Assembly (NCBI GenBank): GCA_905178155.1
Contig: CAJINV010000002.1
Location: 6,912,743 to 6,976,742, forward strand
Origin: Amoebophrya sp. A120
Lineage: Eukaryota > Protista > Dinoflagellata
DNA length: 64,000 nt
Reading direction: 5' to 3'
Shown piece by piece: positions 2,055 through 38,500 of this stretch. Positions within the stretch are counted from its first letter, which is position 1. The number at the start of each line of letters is the position of its first letter. The notes beneath the pieces are model-generated. The model did not search any database, was not told the origin of the DNA, and saw nothing but the letters and a program-made list of their open reading frames with translations. The position numbers and the translations under genes are program-made.

Positions 2055-5000
2055 ATGAGCATGACCTCGTCTACTGCTCCACCTCGAACAGCTGCCGCCT
2101 GCAAGGGCGGCGCTCTTGCTCTTGAGTGGCGTAACATCACGATTGAGGTGGACGGAGGGAAAAAAATCTTGGACAACGTTTCGGGGTTCCTACCCGCGGG
2201 CGAGACCCTCGCCATCCTCGGTCCGTCCGGTTCGGGGAAAACCACGTTGTTGTCTCTTCTTGCGGGCGTTTTCCGGGATGACGGAAAGATGAAGATCACC
2301 GGCGACATCATCGTCGGGAACGAGATGGCCGATAAGGAAGCGAAGTCCGATATCCTGAGTAAAAATGTCCCCACACCATAGTCAAGATGGGGAATCGGCT
2401 AGACAAATCCACAAGTTTTGGCTGTTTTCTTGCATCACTATGTCGCTCCAGCGCCTGCGGAGGCTTGCCTCCAAAGCTATGCTGGACAATGGCAATGTCG
2501 GTGCGGTTGTTTTAGCATCACAAATTTGCATTCGTAGTGTAGTGCTGTTTGAGCTAGCTCAGCAGCATGACAGACAGAGCATACCATGCTGATTGCAGCA
2601 TGACAAATTGCAAAACACGACTAGAAACTGCTTCTCATGGGACTCCGCATGAGAAACATTCTCAGCATGCCGATTTGCATTACAACTTTGGGGTGGGGAC
2701 GTTTTTAAATAGGATATCCGATGCGAGGATGCATGCGTATTCCAAGCACATGAATTACATCCGCATCGTGGAGCAGTACGACACGTTTCTCGGTTCCTCC
2801 ACGGTCTGGGATATGCATTGCAAATATGTCTCGGTCTGGAAAAATGCCAGGTTTGTCATGCTGTGCTAGCATGACTGTCAAGTCTGTCATGCAAGGTACC
2901 CAAAACTGCCACTTTTGTGTCATGCAAAAACCCAGTTTCTCATGCAGAATAGGCAACACCTAGCGACTCAAAAACCTGTCATGCTGAGCCGTCATTTCTG
3001 GCGTTCTGTTGATTCGCCAACCAGCATCACAAGTTTCCAGACCCAGACATATTTGCATTTCATATGGGAGCACATGATGCTAAACGCCAGCCTGCGCCTT
3101 TCCCATTTGAAGTCCGACGAGGAACGGGAAGAGAAGGTCGTGAGAATCCTGAGTCGGTTGCGGTTGCAAGGGTTCGAAACCGTAAAACTCCAGTCTTTGT
3201 CCGGCGGGCAGAAGAAGCGGCTGTCTGTCGCGGAGGAACTTTTGTCGAACCCCGCGATCTTGTTTCTCGACGAGCCGACGTCTGGGCTGGACTCCACCGT
3301 CGCGCGGGAAGTGGTCGAAATTTTCTACGATACCAAGCACATTGATCAGTGCGGGGAGGCGCTAGCACGGAAGATGTCGATTCCATCTGGACAAGATGAT
3401 GGCGCAGCTGGTGCGACGAGTAGGACCTCCAAACAACGGACAAAATCGGCAACAAGCATGAGATCTGGCACTGCTGGTGAGCCGACAAGCGCGACCTATC
3501 TGTACGGCGAAAGCATGATGTACTCCCGGGAGCCCCGATACGCGCAGTTTCAGTCCGGCGACAGTCGCAAGTCTGCCTCTTTCATCGAGGAAGGCGGTTT
3601 GGAGCCGAAATCCCTGACCGACCGTGCATTCGACGAAATTTATGAAAATGTCCAAAACGACGCCAGCGGACGAACCAGCGGCGCAGCGGGAAGAATCGAT
3701 TTTCTTCCAGACGCACCGACCACCGCGTGGGATCGTGCGCGCCAGCGCGTGGAGGTAGCGAAAAAACTGAAGAATAAGAACGCTGAAGAAGAGGATGAAC
3801 ATTTGACGACGATCATCTACACCATTCACCAATATCCTTTGCAAACGTATAGCACTTGCAGTCAATTGAAATCATGCGCCGTGATAAATCTGAGTCTCTA
3901 CCTCTAGTACCTGGTCTAGCATGACAAGTTGTGCTCTACTTTGTAGTCCTTGAAAAAATTTGTATATATGCAACTTTCGATTAGTGCGTGTGCGATAGTT
4001 TTGCATTGCATAACCAACCGTCTTCACTCATCTGGTCCTGGTTCAAACATTCCATGTTTCTGTCCCAGGGAAAAACCATTTATTTCGGCCCCGGTAGTGA
4101 TGTGGTCGATTACTTGGAGAAAAATCTGAAAAACGTGACGTGCCCAAAGGGCTACAGCGCGTCCGAGTTCGTGTTAGACACGATCAACGACAAGGAGGCC
4201 GTCGATAAAATCACAGAGGTCCGCACGCAAGAAAATCATTCGGCAAAAGAGATCAACGCAATCGCGGCGGAGGCTTTGGAACACATGCGGCGAGACGGCC
4301 GCAGCGGAAAGAACAACAACAGCACTGATGATAAGGAGAAAGCCCTTTACGCCCCGTGGTCGACCCAGTACCGCGTTTTGTGGACCCGTTGTTTCCGCGA
4401 CCGCTTGAGGGACGTGAATAAGACGAGACTCACCGTGATCGGGTCCGCGGTGATGCTGCTCCTGCTTTCGCTGTGTTTCTGGCAGAACGGAGAAACACCG
4501 CAGCAGGCCGGGGCAAGGTCCGGAGCGATGTTCATTTTACTCACGTTTCCGATCATGAGCGAGGTTTTCAGCTACATGATCGGCATCATCCTCCTGCAGC
4601 CACAGATTTGCCGCGAGTACAAGACGAAAAGGCTCTATTACATCGGTCCCTACTGGCTGGCGCAGCGCACCGGGACTATCCTGTTCGACTACCTGCAGCT
4701 CGCGGTGTTGTACGTGACTTCACTCTACTGGACGATCGGTTTCTTTCCGGATTTTTCCCCGGTGAAGTATTTCGAGTTGTTGGCGTACATATTGGTGACC
4801 CAGACTATCGGCCACGGGTACGGGATTCTCCTCGGAAACATTGTGACCGATCCGGGGAAGATGCCTTTTCTCTCGTCGATTATGGTGCTGCCGTTCCTCT
4901 TCATCAATCCAGCGCTGGCACAGGGATTGAAGATCCCGCTCTATTTGTGCTGGCTGAACTACATTTCTCCCTTCTACTGGTCTTCGAAACTGCTCGTGTG

Positions 5001-5475
5001 GTGGGCCTGGAAGGACTTTGTGATGCAGGATTTGGATCCGACTGCGGAGGAACTGACGACGTACGCGAACTACTGTGTGTACCAAGATAACACCGGGCAA
5101 GTCTACACGTGCGACGTGATTCACCAAAGCCACACCCTTATCCCGGCCGCTGATTGGTTTAACGAAGGCAAGCCGTTTCTCCGGTTAGAGGGGAATAAAC
5201 TCCTGCCCGCGCAGTTCAAGATCGACCCAACGCAACCGTTCTGGGAGTTCTGGCTCGCGCTGATCATGTGCTTCGTGCTCATCGTAGTGCACAACGCTTT
5301 GGCCTTTACGACCTTCGCGTTCCGGCACAAGTACACGTGCAGCTGCTCGGCGATGTGCAGCAGCCGACGGAAAAAATTTGCGAACGCGGGTCGGAAAAGG
5401 AAGCTTGCTGGCGGTAGTCTCGTTGGGGAGGCCGAAGTTGCGGGAGACGACGATAAGAAACCACTTTTGCCATGA
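2055..5475 (+). CDS. ABCG (White-like) half-transporter, ~868 aa; join(2055..2350,2722..2811,3070..3832,4018..5475)
   Basis: Walker [11 protein letters not shown]-loop region [17 protein letters not shown], signature LSGGQKKR, Walker B/D-loop [12 protein letters not shown] and H-loop TIHQPS (the last rebuilt only after removing an insertion), followed by an ABC2 membrane domain. NBD-TMD order is the ABCG order. Confidence 0.93.
2351..2716. mobile_element. introner-like non-canonical intron element, 366 bp, 5-bp direct repeat TCCGA
   Basis: Left end TATCCTGAGTAAAAATGTCCCCACACCATAGT pairs imperfectly with right end ACTTTGGGGTGGGGACGTTTTTAAATAGGATA. TCCGA at 2346-2350 and 2717-2721. Removal gives ...KSD-ARMHAY in frame. 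Confidence 0.88.
2812..3064. mobile_element. introner-like element, 253 bp, direct repeat TGGGA
   Basis: 31-nt IR TATGCATTGCAAATATGTCTCGGTCTGGAAA / TTTCCAGACCCAGACATATTTGCATTTCATA. TGGGA at 2807-2811 and 3065-3069. Removal gives [14 protein letters not shown], typical of ABCG. Confidence 0.92.
3833..4012 (-). mobile_element. introner-like element, 180 bp, direct repeat ACCAA; reverse-orientation member of the 21713/37546 family
   Basis: Starts TATCCTTTGCAAACGTATAGCAC and ends GTGCGATAGTTTTGCATTGCATA. ACCAA at 3828-3832 and 4013-4017. Removal rebuilds the H-loop TIHQ|PSS. Confidence 0.9.
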
Positions 5476-7585: not shown

Positions 7586-10134
7586 ATGGCAAAGTCGTCG
7601 CGCCGTCCAGTACACGCAAGTGTCCTCGCAGCCATACCCTCCGCCATACTTCTGTACCAAGCTGCTATTCTCCCGGCAGAGACCCATGCCTTCTACGTTG
7701 ATTCTGCTTCCTGGAGGTCCGCCGGTGGCTCCCTTTTCAGCGTCCACCACGGAGACACGTTGAACATAATTTTGCGACAATTGAACGTCACGGAGGAACA
7801 GGAGAAACATGATCGGGAGCAGGAAGAGGAAAATCGGAAGGCGGACAGGAACATTCTGCGCAAGAAGAACCAAACCAACAGCACCTCATCGAAAACTTCA
7901 CATGGGAAAAAGCAAACATCATTTCCCGAGCAGTGGTAACACTTCGCTTTATTCTTTGCAAATGGCTGCTTCTCAATCACCGTTGTTCATGGCAGGATTG
8001 ATAGGGCTACTCGATCAAACTCAGAAAAAATTCACTATCGTGCACTCAGTAAATGCAACTCGTTTCAGGTTTCCCCAGGTTTTCGACCACTTCGCATCAT
8101 CTTCAAGTTCCTCCTCCTCCCAAACATCGAAAAACGACACCTCCACCTGGCCCCAGCGTTTTTTCGAGAACGACCAGCATTTCCAGCCGAATGGTCCGGT
8201 TTTCCTGATGATCGGTGGCGAAGGGGAGATCAGTGACGCGTACGTGTCGGACAGGTTTCTGGCGGCCTATTTCGCGAAGCAGTTCAACGGCAGCGTGTTG
8301 GCGTTGGAGCACCGGTTCTACGGGAAGTCGCAGCCGTTCAACGGGGACTTGTCGGATCTGCAACTGCTCTCCTCCCAGCAAGCGCTGGCGGATTTGGTCG
8401 GCTTTGTCAGGGCGCAGAAGGACGGGAGGGTAGATGGTCTTGGTGGTGAACAAGAACAGAAGGAAGACTCATCTCTTGTTAGAACGGAGCGAAATAAATC
8501 GAGTTCGACGGAAACTCTAACTGCGAAATACGCCAACTCAAAGTTCATCTGTCTCGGCGGCTCTTACCCGGGAAACCTGGCGGCCTGGTTCCGGCAAAAG
8601 TACCCCGATGTCGTACACGGGTGCTTGTCGTTTTCCGCACCTGTTTTCGCAAAAAAAGACTTCTACGAGTACGGACAGATGGTCTACAAGGCGCTCGATG
8701 TGTCGAGGCTGGAAGCAGGAGATGTGGCTGCACCAGACACAACTGCAACTACAATAGAGAGGACAGGGCGAGAACAAATTGAAAAAAAACGAGCCAGCAA
8801 GAGCTCATCTTCAACAGCGCCTACTCCTTCTTCCGCGGCATCAGCGACCTCCAGAGCCGCATCTGCCTCCACAGCACGAGACGTGAGTGCCAAGCTCTTG
8901 CAGGGCTACGAAGCGATTCTGACGGAGCTGAAGACCGGCACGCCGAAGGCGACGGAGCGGATTAGGAAGAAACTAAACGCCTGTCCGTTCACGATTCTAT
9001 CCGATGCGGATATTGCCAACGTGGAGAGCATTTTGACGGGCGTCACGGCCGGCGTGGTCCAGTACAACAACACCTTGCCGGAAGGACGAAAAATTTCCGA
9101 CGTTCGTAAGCTCATCGAGAAAGCTGAGACGCCGGAAGCCGCAGCGTGGGGCGTTTTTGAGCAGTTCTCGGAGTACTTTCTAGCGAGTTTAGCGAAAGTG
9201 TCGCGGATTGGGAGGAGTGCAAATGCGGTTGTAAGGGGTGGAGAACGGGAAAAGATTTTGCTGAAGAAGGCAGCGCCAACAAGTAGAAGATCAGGGGCGT
9301 CAAGGAGGTAGGAAACTAAAAATGCTGATAAGTAGATACTGATACACCCTGTGAGTAGAATCATGACTATGACACAAATTGAAATTGAAAATAAAGCGCA
9401 ACTTCTCCGAAATTTCATCATGATTTGAAACACTGGTACTTAGGTCCGTCCGAAGCCTTCCATCCTCTCCTACGATCGCATCTCTGAACAGCACAACAAA
9501 GTACACCCGGAACAATATTACCAATAACGACACTGCAACGAACGTGACAAACCGCACTTCCTCCACTTCTGCGCAACACAAAGGGCGGACGCGCTCAGAG
9601 AAGCACGCTGAACAGGACAGTTGCGTCGATTACAGCCAGCGGATTGAGTACACTTCCCTCGTCCCCGACTCCGCAGCGGCCGCGCGGTCCTGGGTGTACC
9701 AAACCTGCAACGAGTTCGGGTACTTTCAAACGTCCCGCGTTTCTCTACACAACAAAACGATGTACACCTCGGGGGTGTCGGACCCGAGTCTGTGGGACGG
9801 GATTTGCGAGAACGTGTTCGGCATTTACGACACGGAAACCCGAATCGCGAACACCCGGAGTTACTACGATATCGAGGAGATTCCGGACAGAACGGTGTTC
9901 ATCAACGGGGCCCTGGACCCCTGGAGCACGTTGTCACGGAAGCCGAATGGGGAAAAAACGAGTTATTTGGTCCCGCACGGGTCGCACTGTGTCGGTTTGT
10001 ACGGCCACCCGGGGGATGACAAGGTAATGCCGGCGGCGCAGGAGTTGCAGCTGGAATTGGAAAAAACGGTGAAGGGGTGGCTGTTTGGTGGAGAAAAGGA
10101 TGAGGAAGAAGAGGAGCAGGAAGTTTTTAATTGA
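7586..10134 (+). CDS. secreted/lysosomal serine carboxypeptidase, family S28, ~759 aa; join(7586..7935,8069..9307,9444..10134)
   Basis: N-terminal hydrophobic segment. Motifs WFPQVFDHF, PVFLMIGGEG, LEHRFYGKS, LSSQQALADL, GGSYPG (catalytic Ser), WVYQTCNEFGYFQT, NGALDPW (Asp) and SHC (His). Two GT-AG introns restore the frame. Confidence 0.92.
7936..8068 (+). other. canonical GT-AG intron (133 nt)
   Basis: GTAAC...TTCAG; splicing gives QW-FPQVFDHF. Confidence 0.88.
9308..9443 (+). other. canonical GT-AG intron (136 nt)
   Basis: GTAGG...CTTAG; joins ORF 7809-9311 to the frame of ORF 9544-10134. Confidence 0.78.
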
Positions 10135-12599: not shown

Positions 12600-15500
12600 A
12601 TGGCTGCCTCCAGCAGCTCCACCTCCCCGTCCCGCGGCCAGCAGCCGACCCTGCTGCGCGACCGTCCGGCGCTCGATGACCCGCTTGCATCCACCGACCT
12701 GTTTGGGAGCGGAAAAAGGGCGGCCGATCACAATGCGGTCGCGCAGGGAAGTCTGGCGTCCCTGCGGAAGTTCGACCCGGGCGGCGGCGCGATTGGCACG
12801 ACCGCGATCTTGCACCGCGACCAGGCGATCGACCAGAACATTCTGGAGCCGGATTTTAGCTTCCGAAGAAATTTCATCTCCGACCCAAACGTCCGGAAGT
12901 TGCCGCAGCTCCTGTGTCTCTGCGTCATCTTATCCACAGAAAATTTCCCATCCCCATCCAAAGGGCGATTTTTTTAATGAAAAAATCAATCAATTTTTCA
13001 AAAAAAAAATAAGGTGCGGACGGTAACGGCTGGACTATGTGCGTCATCATTCCGATAGCTAGCGACGTCTCCCGGAAGCAAATAGGTTTAGGTATATAGC
13101 TAGATCTTCCAAACACACATCAGATAAAGTCGGTCAGTGCCAGCGACGCCAGAGCCTGGGCCTACCCCTCGGAGAACCACGCTGGCTCGGCAGCATAAGG
13201 TGCTGGCCCGGCTTCAAATGAAGCTGAGACTTTGCCTCGGAAGGCTCGCGGCGAAAATTCTCGAACACTCTCGAGAATTTTCTTGCTCGGGCCTTCAAAA
13301 AATTTGAAAACGGTGCAACTTTCGAAAAAAACTCGCGTTCCCAAAAATCGTGGATGGGAAATTTTCGTACGGTGCTACGGTCAATTGAAAAATCTCCCAT
13401 CCTCTCACTTCTAAAGAGAAACGAGTGGATGGGAGATTTTTCAATTGACCGTAGCACTGTACGAAAATTTCCCATCCACAAATTTTTGAAAATTGAATGG
13501 TGGTGAACAATTTGAGCATTTTCGCTACCATTTTTTTGTGGATGGGAGATTTATGCACGGTGCTACGGTGAGTTGAAGAATCTCCCATCCACTCATTTCC
13601 AAAGAGAAGTGAGTGGATGGGAGATTTTTCAATTCACCGTAGCACCGTACGAAAATTTCCCATCCACTTTCAAAAAGTGCCACTTTTCGCTCATTTTGGC
13701 TGATTTTCACAATGTTGCTCAATTTTCGCGATTTTTTGCTGTTGGCCGGAGATGAAATGCTCTCGGATTGTTCATCAAATCCGAAAAATCGGCTTGTGGA
13801 TGGGAAATTTTCAGACACAAGCAGGCCCGCCCATATTACGACACATGGGGCCAGCGAGCATCTGCGCCGTCGCCTCCCCTGTCTCGGACCTCGGAATTGT
13901 GCCTTCAATGTGGGTGCTTTGATGTCAAGTAGCTAGCTAAATTACCTGATATATAAGGCTTCCGGGAAACGTCACTACCTAGTTCTCATCTCATGAAAAC
14001 ATCATCCAGATCATCAGCAAATACCTGTGAATTTTTTTGATTTTTTTTATGTTTTTTTGAATAAAAAAACCGGATTGTGGATGGGGATGGGAAATTTTCT
14101 GTGGATACATCTTCGTCGTCGGCTACAACTGCGTCCGCAATGTGAAAAATTGCGATGGCGAAGTGAAAACAAGAGTAATTGCTTCTGGATCTTCTACAAC
14201 GCCTTCTCCTTCACCATCATCCACAACCGACAACTACTACGAGGACTTGATCCACAAGACGATGCCTCACGCGTTTCTCTACGGGGCGGATTGTGCCCTC
14301 CGCGGCATGCTCGCGGGTTTGATTCTGGGCGATATTGCGCAGATCGTTCTCGACCAGTTTCCGGATCTGCAGGAAAAGGTCAAAATTCGCCTTATCGCGA
14401 GTTCGTTCGGCATTGTGCTCGCGGCCGTCGGTGTCTTTCTCGGTTTTCGCGAACAAAACACGGACTACTTCTTTCTCGGCCGTGCGGGCGGGACGGTCAT
14501 GTTCCTGCTCTACCATTTGTTCTCCATTGTGCGACAGTACGACAAGCCGACCTCCAAACTATTCGGCACTGGGAGGAAAATATCGCAAAACGAGGTCTCT
14601 TTCACGCGGGTGAACCAGGAAAGACGGATTCTGTTTTGGCGGTTCGTGAAGCTCTACGGCGTTTGGCTCCTGTGCTTCATCCTGTTTCTGTCTGCGAACC
14701 GGACTTTTTCCGAGCGGATTTACCCCGAAACTCGGTCGTGGCTGCAGAGCCAAATTCCCGATTGGCAGTACACGATCGCGTTCTTAGAGATGCTACTGGT
14801 CGCGTTTTTCTTTCAGGTCTGGCTCCCGCTGTTCTTCCGCTTCTTGGCGCACGGCGTGACGAATTTGGCGAAATTAAGACGCGAATTACTGTTCAACGAA
14901 GACCAGGCGGCGGAGTCTTTGATCGAGCACCAGGAGTACTGGGAGCGGATCGTGTTTTTCGTCAATTTTCAGATGGACTGCCTGCGGTTCTGCTGGGGAC
15001 GGGCGTTACTCTTGCGGATCTCCCGCTACGAGCTGTTTCTGTTTTTGGTCTTGAAGGATAGCTTGTACCACTACCGGCACTTTGGGGTCTGTTACATCGA
15101 CGCGGTGCGCTCCTTAATGGTAAAAGTGTTTGAGCCGAGCGGGGGAAAGGTCGGGCTAGAGCAGGAGGTGGAGCAGGTCGTGGAGTCGGAGTCGAGCTCT
15201 GAGGAAGAAGCTTTTTCGGACGAAGATGATGCTGATGCAACAAGTAATGCCGACGGAATTTTCGCGGACCAGGAAAGCAAAAACGACTTCTGCGCAACAT
15301 CTTCAAAAAACGACAACATCAGCAGTCCGACGATTCCCAATGAAAACTCCACAACCAGCGCGCCAAATGTGAACGCTGCTTCATCTTCTTTAGCTGGTTG
15401 TTCGGGATCTCCGGTGCCCCCAGCGGCAAAAGCGAAAACAAGCCCTCCGGCCTCAGGAGGAACTCCTCCAGCAGCTGCCGCTGCAAAGCAAGGCCAGGGT

Positions 15501-19208: not shown

Positions 19209-20356
19209 GTGGCAGTTTTTGGGCGATGAAATATTGAAACTTGTCCTTCTAGTAGGTACAACGTGGTTAAAGTTTACAATTTCATTTTTCATCATCAAAT
19301 TGGAGATTGATGCTGGACTTTGCATAAAAATATAAAGCTTACCTGAGTGTGCGAGACTCTATCATATCGGTTGCGAAACAAGAGCCCTCGGGAAAAAGGT
19401 AAAAGCCAAGTTCACGTTGTGTCGTTGCCTGCAAAAGGTAAAAGCGAAGATCGGGGAGTCGGAGTGGTCTTCAGCTCTTGTAAAAAATAGCCCGCGATTG
19501 GAGAAAGACAAGGACATGAAAGTGGATTCGAGTTAGAACAACATGCGTTTTACATAATTGTAGTAAAAGTGACGCTGGTGGAGCTGGTGCCGGTGCGCAA
19601 AGTAGAACCAATTAATTCGAATGAATCTTCAAAACCTCTCGGCGAGTACTGCAACAAGAAATCGGCTCTATTGGAGTTAGGTGTTCAGCAGAAGCTTTTC
19701 CTCGATAATTTTCACCGAGCTCCAGTCAGAAGCACTTCTATCTCACTCCCATTGCGAAAAAGAACAGAGAGTCGGTTGCGTGTCTACCGTGTCATGATAG
19801 ATTTTGAGTATACTCCTGTTTGCTGCGGGGTTCGTTAGGTACGTATGTTGAGCATGACGCTAGACAGGAGTACTCTCTTGCAATAGCCACAGCATCAGGA
19901 CGACGAGGCGTTTGTACAGGACAAGGGAGCTTCGCTTGTGCAGATCATTATCCAGATCCCCAGTGACTGAAATTGTACCCCTACCCTTCTTGTCAATGAT
20001 GCCGAGCAAAACCTAAACCTACTATCTACTTTAGAGAAAATTTTATCGCACAGTAACATTATATATTTTACTTAGGAAGAAACCTCGCACTTGCTCTGTT
20101 TTTTTGGTTTTGTAATTGTATCGGGATATATGGTGCTCCACTCGATTGGGATTTCGCACTAGCCCGTTGCTGATTTTTTTATTGCTAATACGAACAGTTT
20201 GCCGATCAATAAATGCTCACATCCACCTACTCGTCCCTCCTGATCTCTTCGTCTTGGAAAGGGGGCTGCGAAACGAGTAAGAGCCCACTTCTGTACTTCT
20301 CGCGCAAGTCGTCCTACCACAACTTACAAAAAGCTGTCAAGAGCATCGTGGCGAAG

Positions 20357-22442
20357 ATGTTTTTCCACTTTCTCGTCCTCACCGCGGTCCTGCTGCTCTT
20401 TCCGGCGACCAATTTCTACGCGGCTACCGCGGCGCCGCTGAACACGGCGCGGGACCTTCACCGTCAGTACCACAATATCTTCCGCTATGGGAACCGGAAC
20501 GCCGCGAGCCACCTGTGGGTTTCGTTTTTGTTGAAGAGTGAGAACTATCAAATGCAAAAATGTCTGGGTGGTCTGGAAGAGTGCGCGACTTGTCATGCTG
20601 CTTTTCCATGACCCATGATGTCTGGAATGCAGGATCTAGCATGACAGATTCTGCGAGACCTTTATCATGCCTATCCTGCATGAGAAACCCCCTCCAGACT
20701 TGGTTAAAACTGGACGACTTCTGGTAATCATGCAACACAGATTTTTACATCCATGCGTCAGATTTAGCATGACAAGTTGCAATCTTCCAGACCCAGACAC
20801 TTTTACATTTGATAAGAACATGAAGGGATACAAAAACTTCGCGAAAATGGAGGAAATGTTCACGGCCTTCTGTCCGATTTCCGGCTCCCCCGTGAATCCC
20901 AACGATTACAACCGGTACGGGCTGGCGTTACCCGTCGTGCCGGAGTTAGCGGTCACGGAGGCGATGGAATTGCAGGCGGCAGCAACTGGTGCAGGCGGCA
21001 CACAAACGTCTTCAAATCAAGATCCCACAGCAGTCGTCCCAGCTGCGTCAAACAACAACCCGAACGCCAGTGCTGCGACAGCAGCTCCGGACGCCATTTT
21101 ACTTTCCACCGCGAACGCGGCCAGGTTTGGCTTCCTGCACTACTGCTGCTGGCCGTGCGTTTGCGACACCCAGGACTTCTTACGGGTGGACTCGAAGACA
21201 ATCACGTTACCGGTTGGGAAAAACAAGTTGATGGAAAAGAAGTACTACTTCGTGGTGATCGGGAACCCCTGTGAAAAGCAGTCGCACTTGGACAAACAAT
21301 TCTACCAACGTTTCGACGGCTATGGATGTGTCAGGTTTGAAACCGTCAAAGTTGAAATAGTTTGTCATGCATAAAACGGATACCAGTTAGACCTACAGTT
21401 TGTAGTCGGTGCATGACAAATCTCCCCGGTCCCGGAAGCGAGTCTGTCATGCGGTTTAGGGCAAAAGAGCTGCCTTCTGTCATGCTCGTCAGCAGTCCAA
21501 CTTTTGACCCTTACCAGGAGTATAATCTGCCTCCCGTGCGTCCTCTGCAATAGCGTCACTTTCTGTCTTGCATTTTATGCATGGCAAATCATTTCAACTT
21601 TGACGATTTCAATCCTGACACCCCCATAATGGCCGGCAAACGACATTACGACGCGAAGCGCCGGAGGTCAGGTGTGACGAGGATAACAACCTGATTGGCG
21701 CGACCTATTCCGTATGCATTGCAAAAGCATCGCACTAGTATAAATTGCATGACAAATTTTGGCAAGAAGGAAAGTGGAATTTGTAATGCTGTTTTGCCCT
21801 AGGAAAAATATTTGTCATGCATATTTGCAATTAGTTTTAGTACGAGTGCGATACTCTTGCACAGGATATTCCGACCACGGGTACGTGATCATCGGCATGT
21901 TTTTCGATTCAGAACCGGTGACAAAGGTTCCGACCCGCTACACCACCGAGTTTCCGAAAATCGGAGACGATTTCTCCTACGTGCAGCCGGGCAGGCCGAG
22001 TTACAAAACGGTTTCTGTGTCCGCCGGGGACGAGGTGAAAAGTAGTAGTGATGAAACAGCGGCAGCGGTGGTGAAACATGGCGAGAAGAGGGAGAAGCAG
22101 TTGCAGTTCATGAACGAGTCGGATTTCGACCAGATGTGTGCGCAGCGGAAGGCGCAGGGCTACAACTCCGGAATGGGGGAGATTTTTCGCAAGGTCGCAG
22201 AGATTGCGCCGATCTTTCTGCCGCTGGGCATCGAAATTCCGCGGGACGCGAGCGCAACGAACGGACTGGTCGGGGGAAAGAAATTGGCTTTGCCGGCGGG
22301 AGTGGGTCGTTTTGGTGCAGCGGTTGGAAGCAGTGTTGGCGAAGATGATGGGGACGTTTTGAAGAAGACAGTGGACCAGAAAAACGTGCTCGGCGTCGAC
22401 GCCACGGGCGCCAGGAGCCGGATCAGCAGTGGGGAACTGTGA
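20357..22442 (+). CDS. putative secreted Cys-containing conserved hypothetical protein, ~445 aa; join(20357..20545,20820..21320,21634..21712,21874..22442)
   Basis: Signal-peptide-like start MFFHFLVLTAVLLLFPA. Motifs IFRYGNRNAASHLW, FCPISGSPV, HYCCWPCVCDTQDF and YNSGMGEIFRKVA. Three insertions, each removed with one direct repeat, give one continuous frame. Confidence 0.82.
20546..20814. mobile_element. introner-like element, 269 bp, direct repeat AGAAC
   Basis: TATCAAATGCAAAAATGTCTGGG..TCTGGAAGA / TCTTCCAGACCCAGACACTTTTACATTTGATA. AGAAC at 20541-20545 and 20815-20819. TIR is related to the 2812 element. Confidence 0.9.
21321..21628. mobile_element. introner-like element, 308 bp, direct repeat ACGGC/ATGGC
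   Basis: ~55-nt IR starting TATGGATGTGTCAGGTTTGAAACCGTCAAAGTTGAAAT and ending ATTTCAACTTTGACGATTTCAATCCTGACACCCCCATA. Removal gives RFDG|RQTTLRREAPEV. Confidence 0.88.
21713..21868 (+). mobile_element. introner-like element, 156 bp, direct repeat TTCCG
   Basis: TATGCATTGCAAAAGCATCGCACTAGTA ... TACGAGTGCGATACTCTTGCACAGGATA. TTCCG at 21708-21712 and 21869-21873. Removal gives GATYS|DHGYVIIG. Colinear near-copy of 37546-37695. Confidence 0.92.
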
Positions 22443-22677
22443 CTAGATTCGACGTTTCCGCTCGGGTTCAGTTTTGAGTTTCTAACACAGTTCTTTCGCA
22501 ATTTGTTTGGGTTTTGAGTTTTTAGTTTACGAAAAAACCGTAACCGAGCTGTATTGCCTGAAGTTGAAATCATCCTAGTGCTGTAGGATGATGAACTTGA
22601 TACGAGATGATCGAGGGGGCTCATACTTTATGTTTATTTATAGTACTAAGAAGTGTAGTTTATTTCCTTTTGTTAAT

Positions 22678-23690
22678 CCCGCCCTTGTAGGGAAGGGAGC
22701 CCATGTGCTCGGAGCACAAAAGTACTTGGTCTGTCTTTAGGACCCAGCAGATGCCAGGACCGACTGGCAACGCGCTCAGAGTGAGACAATGTATCCGCCT
22801 CAGCTACGCGAGGCCTGTGGAGCATCTGGCCTAGTTCGGTCCGTGGAACGCTCGTCGCAGCAGGTCTAGCTCGCAGCTAGACCATCGCGCGCCGCCTTCA
22901 GCGTCTAAAAACATTGCCCACGCCCCTGTAGCCTCCCCTGTGGCATGCCCGTCGCATCCGATCGGTTGCGTGTGCAGCCCCGGAGCATACGACAACGGGA
23001 CGCCAATACAGGGCCACGCAGCGAGCGCGCAAAGATGTGCGAGACACGAAGGCCCGCGACTGCCATGCGCCTCCCTGCCACCTAGCAAGCACCTGAAAGC
23101 CATGGGCCCGCGTCCGAAGGATTGGGCTGCGCCCCCCATCGCTCTTAGTTACGCGCGTTGACGCATGCAATGCCCTCGCAGGGCTGGTCCCTGCGCCTTT
23201 CCCGTGCGTCCGCGTCTGCCCTCCGGGTTGCTGCCGTAGAGGCTGCCCTGGCATCGGGGGGCCTGCTCGTAGTAGATTCCCCCCCTCCTCTCTCTATCTG
23301 TGGAGAGATGGAGCAGTAGCATCCGCTAGAATACAGGATGCACGATGAACGCGGCACAAGGCTTGTAGCCCGCCGCCGACATTGAAAGATCGTGGCAAAA
23401 TCAATCAACACGACGCTCGTAGCGAAGACGCATTGATGCGGCCATCAGGAGCATGGATATAGAGCCCGCCGGTGCGCTCTAAGTCGCCCCCCCCAGCAAA
23501 GGGCGGCCCAGGCACCTCCAGGATCCTTGTTCACCTCTTGCGGCGTTCGTCCACATCACGAACGCAGAGGGTTCCTTCACACCCTTGCTCGCCCGTACTA
23601 CGTTGGGTGGATCGCTTTCCGGGAGACAGGGTCAAATTTAGAGCACCACAAACCTCTCGCAGAGCCGCGTGGAGCGTGTATGTATGTATG
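22678..23690 (+). mobile_element. ~1-kb non-LTR retroposon-like insertion (degenerate, probably 5'-truncated)
   Basis: Identical 17-bp flanks TATTTCCTTTTGTTAAT at 22661-22677 and 23691-23707. The insert ends in a GTGTATGTATGTATG microsatellite tail. GC-rich body, no intact ORF. Confidence 0.7.
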
Positions 23691-26152: not shown

Positions 26153-29100
26153 ATGGACGAACTCGAGAGCGTTCCGGCGATTCAAAGTGAGATCCGCGTC
26201 TCTTCCGCCTCAAGGTCCCCGCAAAACAAGAATTACAATCATGCAGCTGCAGGAACTGCTGGCGCAGCTACAGCTGGTACTTCGTACGGCACCGCCGGTG
26301 TAGTTGGCTCTCATGTAGTCCAACACGAGCACCACAAGCACAATTTCACTCACAACCCTTCCACCGCTTCTGGCACTACGACCTACCACTCGAATTCCAC
26401 GAATTCCGGTTCTGGTATTGGTGCGAACTCACTAGCCGACCACTTTCATGGCACTAACAGTCTACAGCATCGTCCTTCCTCCTACGGTTCCGGAGGTGGT
26501 CCTTCGCCGACAAAATCGTTACAGGGTGCAGGTGGTGGAGGAGCATATCAATATCATGCAGCGAACCCTGCAACGTCGGTGACCAAGGGAGCTGCAGCTA
26601 CAGCATCTTCAAAACCCCGTGGCGGCCAACATGCTGGCACGACTGGACGGCAGCAAGGCGGGGGTGGGTACTATTACGAAGCGGCGAGCAGTATGGATTG
26701 CACATTGGTACCGGACAGTGATGCAGCTCAAACGCAACATGTTGCTCACAAGAATATGCAACCGGCTCAGATGAAGGGACGACAGCAGACCTGGTCCTCC
26801 TCTTCCGCCAGCCCAGCTCCGGCTACTGCAGTAGTTGTTGCCAACAAAGGAATGAGCACAACGCCAACGCAAAAGCAAGGCAACGAAGTTGGCAAAGGAG
26901 CGGGAGTTGGAACAGCGGCGCAACATAGCGGAAAACCGGTGATTTCCGTCCCTGTCGACATCATGAAAGGCGGTAAGACCGGCGGACTCAATTCATCCTC
27001 CAAAAGCAAAAACTTTTCAACATCATCTGCACCTGGAACAAACCAGCAAGCTAACCCATACCACTACCACCCGGACCAGCGCGGCGCTGGAAAGCCATCT
27101 TCAGGCGGCAAGGGGGGCAAATCAGGTAGTAAAGGTGGCTCATATCAAGCGCTTTACACGTATGAGCAGGTGGATATCACGCACGGAGCCTCCACCTTGG
27201 TGGTGCCGTCGCCGGGGCAGCAGATGGCGCAGCAAGTCGTAGCTGCGGCAGGGCCGCGTGAGCAAGTCGTCGTGGTCGAGCATCCAAATAACCAGCCACA
27301 CGGTGGCAAGATCATGAGCGCAAATAAAGGCGGACCGCTGTACAAAGAACCAACTCCAGGTCCTCCTGTGTACAATACGTCCTCCCCGACTAAGAACGTG
27401 GAGGAATTTCTTGGGGCGAATTACGTCAAGGGAAAGGGACAGAAACGCCCAGCACCGCCGCCACCGGGGACGAGTAGCGCAGTAACGGTGGTAGTGCCGC
27501 CCCAACAGGAGGCTGGGGCTCTACGAAGAAATGTTACCGGGGGAACTGGTATTAAAGGTGCAGTTCTTCCGTGTGCGTTGCTTTGTGTTATTCTTAGGGT
27601 TACGATGACGAGACGAAACCGAAGCTCTTTATGAAAACGAAAATATAAAGCCTAAAGCTAAACAAGCACATCTAGAATCTGAAACTTTGTCCAACCGTCC
27701 ATCAAGGTACACCCGCCCGCACACTTTCAGACCTCCAGTCCACACCGCACAAGGTGCCGCCAGGGTTGGAACCGCCAGTAGCAGCAGGGCAGCGAAGCGT
27801 GAACCTAGTTGATCACCCGAGCATCACTCGAGTCGGAACCGCCCCGCTTTCCGAGGCCGGAGTTTCAAGCCGACACGGTTCTCGACGGCAAAGTCGCACC
27901 TTGGTGGATTATTTGGAGTCGCCGGACTGCAACAGTACTAGCGGCAATTTCAACACTTCTGCTGGGTCTGCTGCCCCTATTGGCGGTGGAGAAGCTGCAG
28001 CTTCAGCTTCTGGGCCGCAGCAACAAGGGAAAACCAAAAGTGGGTTTTTCTATCAAGAAGTCGAACTGTTGCCCAGATCGTCCTCTTCGGCTAGCAAGGG
28101 CGGGAATAAGGATAGCTCGAAGCCGACACCAAATTCGGTGGAGCACCAGCATGACACTGGCACAATCACAACGAAAGGTGCAGGTCGGAGCAAAAGTGGT
28201 AGAAAGGCTTTAGAAATCATCTCGGACAGCACGACAAGCAGCAGTAACAAGCAGCCCCGTGGCAAGACGCCATCCTCGAGCTCAAAGTCTACTTCGAAGC
28301 AGCCGAACAACAAAGGCCAGAATTCGTCCGGCGGTGGGGAAAACAATACGAAGATCAAGTCCACGAAAGACTCCAACGTGTACGGTGCGAACAGCAAGGG
28401 CGGGATGTACGATATGCAGCAGGAGCAGCATCGCGGCTCTACTCCAAGCAGCAAGTCGAAATCAGCTTCCGGCTTGTCGTCGAAAGGTGCAAGTACTGCG
28501 GGGATGAATTATGGGAAGCAACTAGCAGGAAGTGTTGATAAAGATAATCATGACCCGCACCTAGTGAACCTAACGGCGCAGTACCAGGACCCAACGCAGG
28601 CTGCAGTGTTGTATGACAGCCTCAGAATGGAAATCCTCAAAGTGGAAATGATTTGTGATGCATGAAATGCGACACCAAAAAGACTGTATTGCAGAGGACG
28701 CAATGGAGGCCGATTATTGTCCTGCCAGGGATGAAGAATTGGAGTGCTGCTTAGCACGAGAGAAGGGCACCCCTTTGCCTTAACCTGCATGACAGACATG
28801 CTTTAAGGGTCCGGAAAATTTGTCATGCGCCGACTACAAATGGCGCTTCAACTGGAGTCGTTTTTTTGCATCACAAAATTTCCACTTTGAGGATTTCCAT
28901 TCTGAGGCCTTCATATGTTGTCCACGCAGTCAACTCCCTCGAGCACGACGCATTTCAATGTTGCTTCTTCCGCAACTAGTGGCCATCCTAGTGGAATAAA
29001 GTTAAAGACCGGCGCTCTTCCGGGGAGAACGATGTCGTCTGGCCGCACACCGAAACACGTGCATCAATATTCCATTTCGACGACGTTTAGTACAGGAGCA

Positions 29101-32064
29101 GAACAACAACATCAAGCAGGTTCTTCTACTTCGAAGGGTGGTTCTTCAAAAGGGCAACACAACTCCAACCGAGGGGAGAGGCTGACTTTCTACAATTTTC
29201 CCGAGGGATGTCCGTTACCTTCTAAGCAGCAGATCTCGAGCGGCAAGGGCAGCACGGTTCCGAATTGCACACTGGAGCAATTTGATCAGGATATCAAAGC
29301 GGGGTCGGAGTATGACAATAAGCAAATGCAGCGGGTGCCGAAAGCAGTTGGCAGTGCTGTGAGTACTGCTTCGACCTCATCATCTGCAACTACGCTTGTT
29401 CATCTGGCGGGAGAAGATGCTGGTTCTGATGCAACTTCTTCTGCTGTGACTGAGAAACTACCTGCTCAGCAAGCACAATGTGCTCCGAAAATGAAAATAA
29501 AGCAGAAATTCGACTTCACCATTCTCCGCGAAATCGTGTGGAAGTACCTGGGATACAACGTGGAAGAGATGAAAGCCAAAACAAACAACTCTTTCCAGTA
29601 CGAACACTACAAGAAAGACTGCATTGCGTGGCTGCGGTTCTTGCTCTCCCAAGAATCGCAGAACTGCGAATGGAAGTTGGGCTACTTGCTTGCGATGTGT
29701 CTGAAGGAGGATTTTTCACCGGCGGAGGAAGAACAACCTGCGGAAGAGCAGAGTCCACAGGACGGCGCAGCGGGGGCTGCACCTGTAGAAGGTAAAAGCA
29801 CTGAGGTAGCAGGGGAACATGATCAAGATGCATCAAATCAGGCGGACAATAAAACCAAGGCCGCGGCGAGCACTTCTAAGTCAGCGTCGAACACAACCAC
29901 GACCGCCTCGACTTCATCGAAAGCGACGTCGAGCGCGGTGAACAAAACAAGTAACACGACGACCACAACTACGAACAATAAGCCGAGCATTCTCGAGTAC
30001 GTGCTGGATTCGCAAATGTTCTCGCTGTTGACGCAACTTTTCATCCAAGACACGAAAACGAAAAAAGTGGACGAACTGGAGCAGATTTTCCTACAATTGG
30101 GCGGCCGGAAAAAGAACTCGCACGTGCTGGCAGCGATGATTCGCGGATATGGGTGTAAAGGGTACTATAGAAATTCGAACTAGAAGTCGATGCGTTTAGA
30201 GTTTAGTATTTGACTGCTGATGCTTTTTCTTTACTCCAGCGTCATTTTTGGTTTTGTTCCTTTGTGATGCCTGCGGAGAATGAATCAAATCATACACTCG
30301 TCCCTTAACCCTTTTCATCACATCTGAAAGATTCCCCAATAACCTCTTCACCACAGCCACTGGAAATCTTCCCTGAAACTCTTTCTGCACGCCCGCGAGC
30401 GGCAATTGGATCCGGAGTCGAAGGATTACGAGTACCGCTATCTCTGCTACCAAGCGGCCTTAGACTGGGCCCTGCAGAACGAAATTTCCTTCATGATCTA
30501 CACAGTTTTGCGGTTTTGCCAGATCGACCAAATCCCCATCCGCTACCCCGGAGGAATCTCCAATAACAACTCCCTCGTGCAGCAACAGCACAGCGGTACT
30601 AACAATTCGAATTCTACTTCCAACGTTGCTCCCGCTAGTAGTACAACTCAGAACCAGGTGCACAGCAGCACGAATTATGCAACAGCTTGTGATAGCCATA
30701 ACCAACAGAACCCAAACGACCAACAAGCGCTGAATCACTGCTCCGGGCCAACTGTCGGTGGCGTAGATTTTGTTCGGTGGCCGGTGGAAGAGTTGAGGTT
30801 TATCTGGCCGGAGGAGCCGGGGCTAGGGGCGCCAAAGATCAAGTATTACGTCTCTCCCTCAACCCCGGAGGACAGAGTCGACGGAACCTTCAAACCCCTG
30901 CCAACGCACTGCATCGTCACCGATCCGCGGCTGGTGGAGTTAGAAAGAAGCGATCCGGAGTTTGCGAAGGAAATTTCCGCAGCGAACAACGGGGATGGTC
31001 GCGGTGTGACAGAAACGATAAACCAGCAGGCTGCACAGCATCACGCGGCCACAGTGAGCGCATTTCACCCTACAGGAGGTGCACCAGGTGCTGGTCCTGT
31101 CTACGGAGGTCCTCCGGCCGCTGAATTGTATCCAGGTCAGCAGATCACGTCGTACCCGTATCCCTCTCAGCACCAACACCCACCTGCGCAGGCTGCGGAG
31201 CACCACCGCGGCCACGGCCACCATCATCAGCAGCACCATTACGAACATTTCGCACCAGCTGCACTCTACCAAGAACAGGAATACCATGCACAACACCAGT
31301 ACTACGACCCCTACGCGGCGGCCGCTGCAGCAGCTTCCTACCACCATCACTACGACCCGGCAGGCGGAGGTACAGTAGATCCATACACAGGAGCCGCTCC
31401 CTACAACCCTCACGATTCCTCGTCTCTCCTTCACAACCAATCTACGCTGACCGGCGACAGCATCACGCCCATTGCGGCGGACCCAAACAACACCTCTATG
31501 CACGGCTTCTACCACCACGACCCGAATTGGAGTCAGGGACACGATTTCTGGCCTCTGTCGGTTGAACCCAGCCCGACTGGGGCGGAGGGCGGGCAGTTCC
31601 TCGATTTCAATAGGTATAGTACTCATGTTGAGTACAACAGCGGCGGTGTAGGACCAACATCTGCAGGTAGTTCTGGCGCCGGAATTATGGCTGCATCTTC
31701 AGCGGCTCCTGGTCATCTCGCGCAGCAACCTCCGCCGCCTTCGGTTGACAACACGCCCGCCGCGGCCTTTCACGAGTATTTCTACGCGGGACAGCAAGAA
31801 CATCAGGAACTACACCAGCAGCACCACCAGCCCGGTTCGTTTTCGCAAGAAGACTATGACAGTTACTACGCGCATTTGGCAGCTTCGATGGGTGCACCAG
31901 CTGGAGGACCCTATCATGGCGCGGAACCGTCTCCGATTGGATCGGAGGGGCACATCGATCCGAATTTCGGGTTTGAAACCTTTGAACGGCAGAACTCTTT
32001 GCTGGTGCTGGGAGAGGACCACGCGCTGTTGAAGAATAGCAGCCCGGGAACGCGTGCGGTGTGA
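26153..32064 (+). CDS. large low-complexity (G/S/Q/H-rich) protein with a PPR-like helical-repeat segment, ~1750 aa; join(26153..27557,27707..28611,28921..30161,30357..32064)
   Basis: Four ORFs are joined by GT-AG introns (27558-27706, with an alternative in-frame acceptor at 27730; 30162-30356) and one TAT..ATA element. Splicing creates AAMIRGYGCKGHWKSSLKLFLHARERQLDP, which is PPR-like. Confidence 0.72.
27558..27706 (+). other. canonical GT-AG intron (acceptor 27706 or 27730, both in frame)
   Basis: AAAG|GTGCAG donor; CAAG or TTCAG acceptor; AT-rich interior with stop codons. Confidence 0.6.
28612..28915. mobile_element. introner-like element, 304 bp, direct repeat TGTTG
   Basis: ~50-nt IR TATGACAGCCTCAGAATGGAAATCCTCAAAGTGGAAAT / ATTTCCACTTTGAGGATTTCCATTCTGAGGCCTTCATA. 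TGTTG at 28607-28611 and 28916-28920. Removal gives AAVL|STQ. Confidence 0.92.
30162..30356 (+). other. canonical GT-AG intron (195 nt)
   Basis: GTACT...CACAG; phase-2 junction gives CKG-HWKSS. Confidence 0.8.
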
Positions 32065-35000: not shown

Positions 35001-35518
35001 GGCAAGCAACCAAGTGGCGCCGGGCCCCGCCCGGGCCGGCTTCGCGCCGGGCGGCAGGATAGAGGCCGGGGGGCGCCCTTGTTCGTAAGGAACGAAGGGC
35101 AGCTAGGTTGCTCTTTTCCTCCGCCGTGTATTTTATGCGAAGGTGGGGCCTCAAGCTTTGTCGGCCTCGGCGCAGCAGTTGCCTTGCTTGCGTTTGACAA
35201 CAAAAGGGCCTGCTTAGAGAATACAGAGCGGACTATCATAGTGAAAGCATATATGTGCCCCCGTCCAATTGCACAATGTGGCGCCATGTCTCTGGTTGTG
35301 GTTGATGAAACAGTTCCGTCTCCGTGTTGTTTTCACGGACGATGTTCTCTTGACCCGTTCAGTATAAAAGCTTGAGCATCCTCTTTTTGGCCCCAACCTC
35401 AGAAAAATCAACCCAGACATCGCTCACAGACGCAGTCTCTCCTCGTGTATACCGCACAGTATCTTCTTTCTTGTTCTCTGAGTCTGAACGAACGCACAAC
35501 TGCGGAAATAAAGCCAAC

Positions 35519-38500
35519 ATGTCCACCACCGCGCTCCCAACGCCCGTGCGTGTTGTCGTTCCCCGAGGTACAGTCCGATCCTCTTCCGCCGCGCCTCACC
35601 GCAGGAGGAGCAAAGACGCAACAACCGGCACACCCGTCGTCGATGTGGTTGAAGAGGATCTGGATATCTTCGGGAAATCGATCGAAGACAATGTGGAGAA
35701 TGTTTTGTGGTTCGGTCCGGCGAACGCAGCGCTGAAAACTGTCGGCTTGGTCGCGTCTTTGGATGACGATGTTGGCGCGAGTGTTGTGGGTGTTTCCTCA
35801 TCGTTGTCCAGCAGCAGCAAGTGCTTTGTATTGCAGAAGCTCGCTCACGCTGTGGATTCGAAACTGCGGAAAATTGTTGAACGACATCCAACTTTTATCG
35901 CGAGTGATAAGAAGACTGATGGCGGGGGACCACCAGGCCGCAGCTACAGCTTTTCTGTCAGTTGTGTTTCCGTTCCGAACCAAACAAGTGCCACTACCGC
36001 CCCTTCTGTCGACAACCAGCCTCAGATCCTCTGTCCCAAAACAGCCTACGACAGTAAGGCGGAGCTGTGGGAGGAAATCATCCGAGAAAGATGCCTTGCC
36101 AACCGTTGGCGCATGGCACTGTCTGCTTGTGATTCCCAAGCCGCTTCCAGTCTGCTCTTCACTTGGACCGTGGAGAGAAAGGCAGACGTGGTTGGAACTA
36201 GTACTGGAGTCGCGGGTGGCAGTTTGCATCCGGCGCTGTCGTTCCTAAACAATCCGTCGAATTCCAAGAATTCGTCCGAGGAGTTCCTGTTCATGGTGCA
36301 GCTATTACTCCTGCCGACCATGGCAGCCCAAAGTGGCATCTACGACACCTTTCTCAAACAGGTCGCCGTTTCCAACATTCACCGGCAGCTGACGACGAAG
36401 GACACACCGAAAAGACAAATAACGGCTCCAGGAACTACTACAGAATTCCCATCCATCTCCATCGAACAGCTCCTGCAGTGCTTTTTTGCCTGCTCGACCT
36501 TTCGCGCAACCGTTTTGCTGTTCGGTGAGGGAAGAGAAAACGGGAATGTCGTGAACGCGTTGGAGATCGCGATTGGAGAAATGCGAGCAAATTTATCCAG
36601 GAAAAACACCCATCCCCATCCAATTTGTCATGCAAAACATGCATAAAATCCACTTCCACTGTTTGCCATGCCAAAAATGGATGGGGATGAGGGTGTTCTC
36701 CTGGATAAAATTTCGCAGCATTGTCAGCTGAAAGTCTCGACCACAACACAATCAAGGACCACAAAAGTGTTGATAAGATTCTCCAATCCGTCGGACGAGT
36801 CGTGCCAGAATACATGAGTTCTCTGAGCAAGAGGGTGACCACGGAAAAAAGTTCAACCGCGGCAGGGGCAGGAAGCGGCAGTATCAAAGCGGAGAAGCGG
36901 GTTTCTTTCGATGGCGCAGCAGCGGAACAGGCGGGGAGCTCGGGAGGTCTGCCGGGAGGAGGAGGTGGCTTGTTAGGCGGAACATCGAGCGACAAGACTG
37001 CGACTGGTGTTCCAAAGATCATAAAGAGCAACGAAAATAAGGACTCAACCACTTCTGTGCCTTTGTTCTATTTGCTCGGTCGACATCTGGATCCCGTGTT
37101 AGATCAGGCGTTTTGTTTTGGTTTCCAGGAAAACACTGTGGCTCCTGATCAGATGAAAGTTGAATTTTCTGTCCGAGAGCCACTCTGCACGATTTCATCT
37201 ACATCTGCCGCGGCCTCAGCATCAAACTCCACGGCAACATCTTCATCCGCAGAGCGGAGCCAGGTTCTGATAGCGCCTGGCGAAGACGCCGCGCAGTCAA
37301 CGATGATCACAGTTTACCCATTCGCTTCGTCTTCGAATAAATCCGCTGACGCTACCGGTGTCGGTGCAAAGGTAACACTTCAACTGAGCTTACCTGCTCC
37401 TGCAGCTTCTTCAAAAGCAGATCACACCGGCGCCGAACAACCAGCAGCCAAGCCGAATGTGATCTTGACAAAACCTCCTCCAGGAAACAAGTCCTCATCT
37501 TCTCTGAAGCTCCGGATTAACGGAGTTTTGCTTCGAGACGAGAGCTATGCATTGCAAAACTATCGTACTAGTATAAATTGCATTACAAATTTTCCCAAGA
37601 AGAAAAATGCAATTTGTCATGCTATTTCAGGTAGAAAGTTGGATTTGTCATGCATATCTGCAATTAGTACGAGTGCGATACTTTTGCACAGGATAAGAGT
37701 TGTGCGCTCCAACCAGGCGATCTTATTTCGCTGAACGACGTCGGCCCGGTATTACAACTCGTATCCGGGGAGAATAAGAAACCTGACTTTCCGCAGCCGC
37801 TCCCCTCCGCAAACGAAATCCAGACTTTGGCTGCGATGAACCTGCGGGAAAGCAGCTCCTCGGCGGATGGAGGCTCCGCCGGCGGAGACAGAACGCCGAT
37901 CAAGGATCCGTACTTCTCCAGTGCGTATTTCAACGACACATCACCCACCGCGGTGCGAAAGTCTGGTAGTGTGAGTCCGACGAGAAATAGGAGTGTGGGA
38001 TTGGGATTTGCACAAGACGATCCTGTACAGCACCAGCGCGAACGAACGCCCGCAGATCAAGCACCGCCTCGATTGCGATCTTCACAAGGTGGAAACGCAA
38101 CCTCATCTGCAGGAGCCACGTCGTCCTCTCCTGTCTACGAGAAGATTTTATCCGAAGCATTTGGAATCAGTCGCGATCCGCTGGCGACGGAGGGGAATCT
38201 TTTGTTGCAGGAATTCAACTTGTTAGACGTCGGGAGAGGAGGTTGCTTCGAGAAAATCTTCGTAGCATCTGCATCTGAGCAAAGCAGCACAGCAGGTTAT
38301 AGTAGAGGGACAAGTAAAAGTAGAGGAAGTGGTGCTCGGAAGCAGGTGCTCTACTCGTATCGCTCCGAGTACTTTGACTCGGAGAAGATGCTGAAAAACT
38401 ACTTGCCGAATCTGCGGTATTTGTACGCCGCGACAACAGGGGTCAACCCATCTTCTGCAAGTGCAGCTTCGTCAGCGGCACAGGAACAAGCTGGTGCTCC

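Follow-up and report, generated by a model that had tools for sequence, protein, structure and literature searches.

Introners of Amoebophrya sp. A120 are very probably removed from transcripts in both orientations

How can one family of mobile elements be taken out of transcripts whichever way round it lies within a gene? The question is raised by a 64,000-nucleotide stretch of the genome of the dinoflagellate Amoebophrya sp. A120 (contig CAJINV010000002.1; hereafter the window, with positions counted from its first base), in which a first-pass annotation had placed three related introners, here called A, B and C, with C reversed; its coordinates and end sequences for all three are confirmed here. 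The elements themselves are already-published A120 introners; their removal in both orientations is a real property, and one that is apparently unstated for Amoebophrya. Whatever removes them probably recognizes the mirror-image ends and not a signal that works one way only.

In the description of Farhat et al. (2021; PMC7789003), A120 introners have inverted repeats that open with TAT, followed by seven variable bases and AAA, direct repeats of 3–5 nt across their boundaries, no splice-site signature and a predicted hairpin. The same authors report that > 60% of Amoebophrya introns lack GT-AG, leave the removal route as an open question, did not detect U1 snRNA, and propose a divergent replacement subunit for U1; 83 of 89 spliceosomal proteins and the U2, U4, U5 and U6 RNAs are retained. 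The window holds 11 non-overlapping TAT...ATA elements (12 candidates at a loose threshold; 0–4 per shuffle). Their terminal inverted repeats fit TAT, seven variable nucleotides and AAA, and a direct repeat spans their boundaries; those of A, B, C and 21321–21628 are non-GT-AG, and the seven elements with a displayed joint (listed below) are missing from likely RNA. They also have the traits that miniature inverted-repeat transposable elements (MITEs), or non-autonomous DNA transposons, show: terminal inverted repeats, a target duplication, no coding capacity and insertion free of strand. By clustering, A and B group with 135 further copies and so belong to a repeated family.

Related introners in opposite orientations within genes

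The three introners first annotated are as follows.

21713–21868, plus strand: introner A, TATGC end 5′, repeat TTCCG
37546–37695, plus strand: introner B, likewise with the TATGC end 5′; its repeat, AGAGC/AGAGT, is imperfect
3833–4012, minus strand: introner C, TATCC end 5′ in the transcript, ACCAA repeat at 3828–3832 and 4013–4017

A and B are colinear copies, as annotated, with 81% identity over 158 positions. C matches B from end to end in reverse only (65.6% over 180; E 4e-6), and the three-way alignment has 96 invariant columns with C reversed as against 76 with C forward. Each copy is a partial palindrome, and the ends were trimmed before comparison: with 35 nt removed per end, C still matches B in reverse (z = 7.3) and not forward (z = 0.3), and C against A shows no orientation preference at 14–35 nt trimming. 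The reverse-complement alignment suggested in the first-pass annotation therefore favours reversal with B and is undecided with A. Against a hidden Markov model (HMM) built from 115 other copies, C reached 50.9 bits across the full model when reversed and 18.8 bits when forward; the true members A and B reach 127–132 bits, and 40–46 bits on their own reverse strand. An interior-only model gave C 12.2 bits, no higher than elements of other families (13.6–15.2 bits), and strict clustering (60 bits) left C on its own. By these sequence comparisons C is a reversed, diverged, distant sister of family A/B, as had been proposed, and at most a marginal member, not a close copy. The trio by itself is thin proof of both orientations.

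Two further families in the window occur both ways round, and an additional introner is needed for what follows.

21321–21628, plus strand: second-family introner, imperfect repeat ACGGC/ATGGC
28612–28915, minus strand: reversed relative of 21321–21628, repeat TGTTG, inside a plus-strand gene with GT-AG introns
20546–20814, plus strand: third-family introner, repeat AGAAC
2812–3064, minus strand: third-family introner, reversed with respect to 20546–20814, repeat TGGGA, removal of which restores the frame
36594–36707, strand uncalled: introner, repeat AAATT, with the GCATnACA motif discussed below on the antisense strand only

When inverted, 28612–28915 is identical to 21321–21628 in 226 of 308 columns (73%), with a local score of 802 in reverse as against 414 forward; judged by alignment, this is a cleaner inverted pair than C with A/B.

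The host genes are these.

2007–5475, plus strand: host of C, an ABCG-type half transporter that also holds elements 2351–2716 and 2812–3064
20005–22442, plus strand: host of A, 21321 and 20546, a conserved 493-aa protein
35354–39221, plus strand: host of B and 36594–36707, a 1197-aa frame

That the hosts of A, B and C all lie on the plus strand is needed for any claim of both orientations relative to transcription. The host of 28612 is likewise on the plus strand, has GT-AG introns and gives a joined frame of 1753 aa; the longest minus-strand frame at the hosts is 257 aa, compared with plus-strand frames of 741, 493, 1197 and 1753 aa. In the host of C, the Pfam domain ABC_tran lies upstream of the element and ABC2_membrane downstream. 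A 741-aa stop-free frame appears once C is removed, and the gene is stop-free from 2007 once the two upstream elements (2351–2716 and 2812–3064) are removed. C was said to interrupt a plus-strand gene between TIHQ and PS, and does so: starting at residue 1, the downstream exon matches PSAKLFELF in ABCG1. In the host of A, the open reading frame (ORF) joined at the observed joints is 100% identical to a 493-aa Amoebophrya sp. A120 protein at NCBI (P0001), already annotated with these introns taken out, and the A junction restores GATYSDHGY, which is aligned in five homologues. No Pfam family matched the 493-aa protein. It carries the motifs HYCCWPCVCDTQD and GNRNAASH, and proteins of Chromera as well as environmental ones are among its 44 relatives.

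A wider sample came from one other assembly (contigs JACKZZ01), where a search with an exact pattern for both ends yielded 116 loci (L001–L116), with no long match to the window. Dropping a duplicate locus (L073) left 115 distinct copies; L024, L053 and L057 have a repeat in common and so are perhaps related, and several loci carry more than one copy. The 5-bp repeat was perfect in 80 and had one mismatch in 28, together 108 of 116 copies. Orientation was called with a coding model trained on the window (threshold 5, 240-nt flanks), which made 65 calls among 87 held-out sites, all of them right; removal at the 116 loci is read from restored frames.

Tabulated relative to transcription, as the first-pass annotation had proposed, both orientations were present: 28 of the 115 copies were sense, 39 antisense and 48 uncalled (P = 0.22). 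Calling by locus gave 27 sense, 52 antisense and 36 uncalled (P = 0.007), in agreement for all 55 doubly called copies. Pfam searches of 100 flank pieces gave 7 matches and 93 without a match, and confirmed the strand at three antisense and three sense loci. Identity between copies in opposite orientations reaches 97–98%. Sense copies are scattered among antisense ones, and the two classes are conserved to the same degree (mean identity 0.796 between sense copies, 0.802 between antisense copies and 0.797 between the two). Among the 268 elements of loci and window combined (0 in one shuffle of the loci), families 0–5, 7 and 9 occur in both orientations, eight of the ten families numbered 0–9, each with 2 or more called copies; families 6 and 8 (4 called each) and family 10 (2 called) occur in one orientation only. 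At L065, two family A/B copies (2001–2151 and 3338–3486) lie 1.2 kb apart in opposite orientations, both called inside plus-strand coding sequence.

Read-through of the elements as in-frame inserts was rejected: a length divisible by three together with any stop-free frame occurred in 0 of the 28 sense copies and in 6 of the 39 antisense ones.

Loss of the elements from likely-RNA contigs

Removal was followed in contigs of four runs (X1–X4, 2 samples of 1 study) that are taken as RNA by guess and behaviour: they lack GT-AG introns and leave stretches and intergenic parts uncovered, and so behave as RNA. The sole DNA-like run compared, X5, covers all 30 bins, and one unbroken contig (3042–12998) keeps C and two GT-AG introns at single-copy depth. 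DNA and RNA runs are from different samples, and for B and 28612 the DNA control is the window itself. At all seven displayed joints the skipped length equals the element plus five.

Introner C: 3827 joined to 4013 in X1 and X4, 185 nt absent
Introner A: 21705 joined to 21867 in X1 and X4, a skip of 161 (156 + 5)
Introner B: 37540 joined to 37696 in 4 of 4 runs, a skip of 155
21321–21628: 21317 joined to 21631 in X1 and X4
20546–20814: 20540 joined to 20815 in X1 and X4
28612–28915: 28606 joined to 28916 in 4 of 4 runs, in a contig that also drops GT..AG introns on the plus strand
36594–36707: 36588 joined to 36708 in 3 of 4 runs

The joined contigs are unbroken at a depth of 150–474. X1 and X4 contigs also resume at 3065, beside element 2812–3064, where the joint itself is not displayed. 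The first-pass annotation had asked whether reversed copies stay unspliced; the reversed elements C and 28612 are instead missing from the likely-RNA contigs. We therefore consider removal from RNA in both orientations very probable. Four ordinary GT-AG introns (7936–8068, 9308–9443, 27549–27706 and 30162–30356) are likewise lost, either from contigs that also drop non-canonical introns or next to such introns.

Hidden canonical splice sites were considered and rejected. At A, B, C and 21321 no joint register offers GT/GC..AG on the coding strand, and a GA-type donor with AG is also absent; elsewhere such a GT/GC..AG register exists in just 4 of 46 perfect-repeat copies.

What the removal machinery could read

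In transcript orientation none of the 20 positions compared distinguishes the 5′ end profile from the reverse complement of the 3′ profile (P > 0.3 at each, n = 171), in a set where the first three bases are fixed by the element finder and about two fifths of the members are pattern-selected. The terminal ~35 nt are inverted repeats. Since the ends are symmetric, an element lying either way starts with nearly the same UAU...GCAAAA and finishes with nearly the same UUUUGC...AUA; reversal alters the interior and hardly the ends. End pairing is lowest at positions 4–7, also outside family A/B (0.59–0.72 versus 0.85–0.96 at positions 9–13), and the predicted end-to-end hairpin scores z = –2.97 for A and z = –2.98 for B against shuffles. 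A strand-biased branch-like motif was not found (CTRAY on 13 sense and 15 antisense strands of 171), and the 5-bp repeat has no fixed base (none > 0.37 at any of its 5 positions, n = 134), its mild asymmetry resembling the A-rich coding strand. These results support the earlier proposal that the ends or the hairpin are the signal, and disfavour strand-specific interior or GT-AG signals. The accompanying statement that strand-specific donor, branch and acceptor sequences can play no part in removal goes too far, because symmetric ends would let a sequence-specific, donor/acceptor-like reader work either way.

Imperfect repeats bear on where the cut falls. The joined form of B keeps the right copy's T at repeat base 5, which places the cut at base 4 or earlier, and that of 21321 keeps the left copy's C at base 2, which places it at base 2 or later; at L040 the right copy at repeat base 2 would make a stop. 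Together these imply that the 5′ exon keeps 2–4 repeat bases, if one rule applies. Repeat mismatches are synonymous in 23 of 37 called elements, compared with 34–43% expected with one copy free (P 0.0005–0.017; predicted frames, small sample); this excess hints against a single rule, and the junction may slide. No cut window within the repeat was found in the text of PMC7789003; its figures could show one.

The elements likely spread as non-autonomous DNA transposons. Near-identical opposite copies and the 5-bp duplications uphold the earlier preference for DNA transposition to the extent that direct reverse splicing into mRNA is rejected as the route of spread; an RNA intermediate copied to double-stranded DNA is still compatible with them. 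A further trace of mobilization may be an internal box, GCATnACA, present in 261 of 268 elements compared with 6 expected from base shuffles, and in 126 of the 131 elements outside family A/B, in all 14 families. Its extended form is GCATnACA(A/G), with n almost never A; in the window, the 4 kb of elements hold 28 copies and the remaining 60 kb hold 6. The box is strand-neutral to transcription (28 sense-only and 22 antisense-only of 171; P = 0.48) and prefers end distances of 33–34 or 41–46 nt and spacings of 31–33 and 45–52 nt. Most simply read, it is a candidate double-stranded-DNA binding site of a common transposase. A role as branch point was rejected, since the box is neutral to strand and keeps no fixed relation to the 3′ end. 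A search for 'GCAT' in the main text of PMC7789003 gave 0 matches; the figures of that paper could show the box.

We tentatively favour, as quite possible, a scheme in which a non-spliceosomal nuclease plus ligase cuts the elements from pre-mRNA by reading a two-fold symmetric hairpin end. A DDE transposase, working by cut-and-paste or copy-paste, would bind the TAT ends and internal GCATnACA boxes on double-stranded DNA, make a 5-base staggered cut and insert the element regardless of strand. The transcript would then fold end to end, UAU/AUA closing over an internal loop (positions 4–7) and a long stem. Cuts would fall within both repeat copies, given a single rule after base 2, 3 or 4, and ligation of the exons would leave one repeat copy. 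The end structure is nearly unchanged on reversal, which would explain the orientation independence.

Several observations weigh against this scheme. The one raw RNA run compared yielded 2 reads, and X1–X4, from their single study, are only guessed to be RNA. TAT and ATA are imposed by the element finder, so that their invariance is not independent evidence. The hairpin of C is no more stable than shuffles (z = –1.14), yet C is removed. The 52:27 skew at the level of loci raises the possibility that the orientations are not equivalent, with a mild bias. No transposase was found within the window, and Farhat et al. report finding none in A120 and argue against general mobilization by transposase (PMC7789003). 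Finally, A120 keeps nearly all spliceosomal proteins, so that a modified spliceosome is about as plausible.

Such a spliceosome would be independent of U1, and a protein on the symmetric ends or hairpin would set the sites, these being donor and acceptor marks of specific sequence that are available either way; we regard this as possible. The retained proteins and RNAs and the undetected U1 (PMC7789003) speak for it. GT-AG introns and elements are removed from the same contigs, and end symmetry lets a reading of sequence fit both orientations. Spliceosomal chemistry normally constrains the terminal bases of an intron, and this, with a repeat that has no fixed dinucleotide and the lack of a strand-biased branch-like motif in the set examined, counts against it.

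In an alternative that we consider improbable, a protein, derived from a transposase or not, would bind the GCATnACA boxes on DNA and bring in the removal machinery during transcription, the strand-neutral mark then lying on DNA and not on RNA. The spread of the box across all families, its neutrality and its preferred end distances would suit such a mark, as would removed elements with exact boxes on the sense strand only (C) or the antisense strand only (36594). A transposase binding site without a role in splicing explains the same data simply, and two long window elements interrupt open frames yet lack an exact box.

Hairpins with short direct repeats are the signature of reverse-transcriptase template switching, which is likewise blind to orientation, and the contigs with joints are all cDNA-derived. 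That the joints are such artefacts is nevertheless very unlikely: retention would break proteins (the lengths of C, A, B and 21321 are not divisible by three, and each of the three frames of 28612 contains stops), multiples of three are not in excess among the removed lengths (45 of 171), the contigs are unbroken across the joints at high depth, the joined ORFs match homologues, and C is removed just as cleanly although its hairpin is weak. Slighter still is the chance that the elements are excised from DNA in transcribing stages, by precise somatic excision or in the manner of ciliate internal eliminated sequences (IESs), which TA-type ends, precise loss of one repeat copy and the different origins of DNA and RNA samples would allow, since a single unbroken contig of the DNA-like run crosses C at single-copy depth, the element-free runs also lack GT-AG introns and intergenic cover and are thus RNA-like, and nuclear dualism is not known in dinoflagellates. 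We give artefact and DNA excision together little weight.

Other features, known systems and significance

The remaining features of the window are listed here.

2351–2716, strand uncalled: introner, repeat TCCGA, with four GCATnACA, all on the sense strand, and no RNA joint displayed
12931–14107, strand uncalled: long TAT...ATA element of 1177 bp, repeat CATCT, 24/24 terminal complementarity
53129–53899, strand uncalled: long TAT...ATA element, repeat GCAGA, downstream of the amino-acid permease exon
7785–9308, plus strand: S28 serine carboxypeptidase
47567–48043, plus strand: proteasome subunit
49866–53126, plus strand: amino-acid permease
59468–61621, plus strand: methyltransferase

Every identified gene of the window is co-oriented on the plus strand. 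The element at 12931–14107 has internal inverted and tandem repeats and sits in an open plus-strand frame, with no exact GCATnACA and no RNA cover across it. Four frames inside or overlapping the two long elements gave no Pfam match, and a search of the window for an autonomous partner found no TAT...ATA element of 1.5–15 kb. At 43877–44118 lie GC-rich nested inverted repeats, including the window's only N, that are built differently from the TAT elements.

Introners of Polarella glacialis and Aureococcus anophagefferens are reported to make introns in either orientation, with a bias to one (bioRxiv 10.1101/2020.10.14.339549; PMC10228655). Like the A120 elements they are transposon-like and have target duplications; unlike them they are described as spliceosomal, with GT, GC or GA and AG supplied by the element end or the duplication, a pattern that is missing at A, B, C and 21321 and, in its GT/GC..AG form, from all but 4 of the 46 perfect-repeat copies. 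By analogy, the closest working counterpart is offered by the non-conventional introns of Euglena, which have paired motifs at fixed spacers and likely a distinct machinery (PMC12501133; PMC11282704). Paired terminal motifs, junction direct repeats and a suggested MITE origin are shared; the Euglena code, in an unrelated lineage, is CAG...CTG with 3-nt and 5–6-nt spacers and a purine after the intron (PMC12501133), and the word 'orientation' is absent from the main text of that paper. For the mobile side, IS3EU/GingerRoot DNA transposons also have TA..TA termini, and their integrase-like DDE transposases agree with integrase-like ORFs reported within some A120 introners (PMC10045372; PMC12130899). 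Their duplications are usually 6 bp as against 5 bp here, and the window shows no such transposase, so that kinship judged from these likenesses is a lead only.

No statement on the orientation of Amoebophrya introners was found in the text or supplement text of PMC7789003, whose figures, including S19–S25, could show some; none was found in PMC12130899, PMC9860276 or PMC11453091 either, and the survey datasets could contain such data. One of these surveys aligned like ends with like ends by method (PMC12130899), and reversed copies may therefore be split there into separate families.

With removal working both ways round, the cis signal is narrowed down to the symmetric ends or the hairpin. 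Opposite copies with 97–98% identity are natural matched pairs for comparing efficiency, and imperfect repeats locate the cut without experiments. The cross-family box suggests that elements classed in their description as 1,954 families share one mobilizing protein, and is a handle for finding it. More speculatively, A120 might possess a second mRNA splicing system apart from the spliceosome and blind to strand, in which a symmetric nuclease-ligase excises any UAU...AUA-closed hairpin by cutting inside the 5-base duplication, and one box-marked transposase system inserts the introns. If this is true, one transposase system could place tens of thousands of introns either way at almost no cost.

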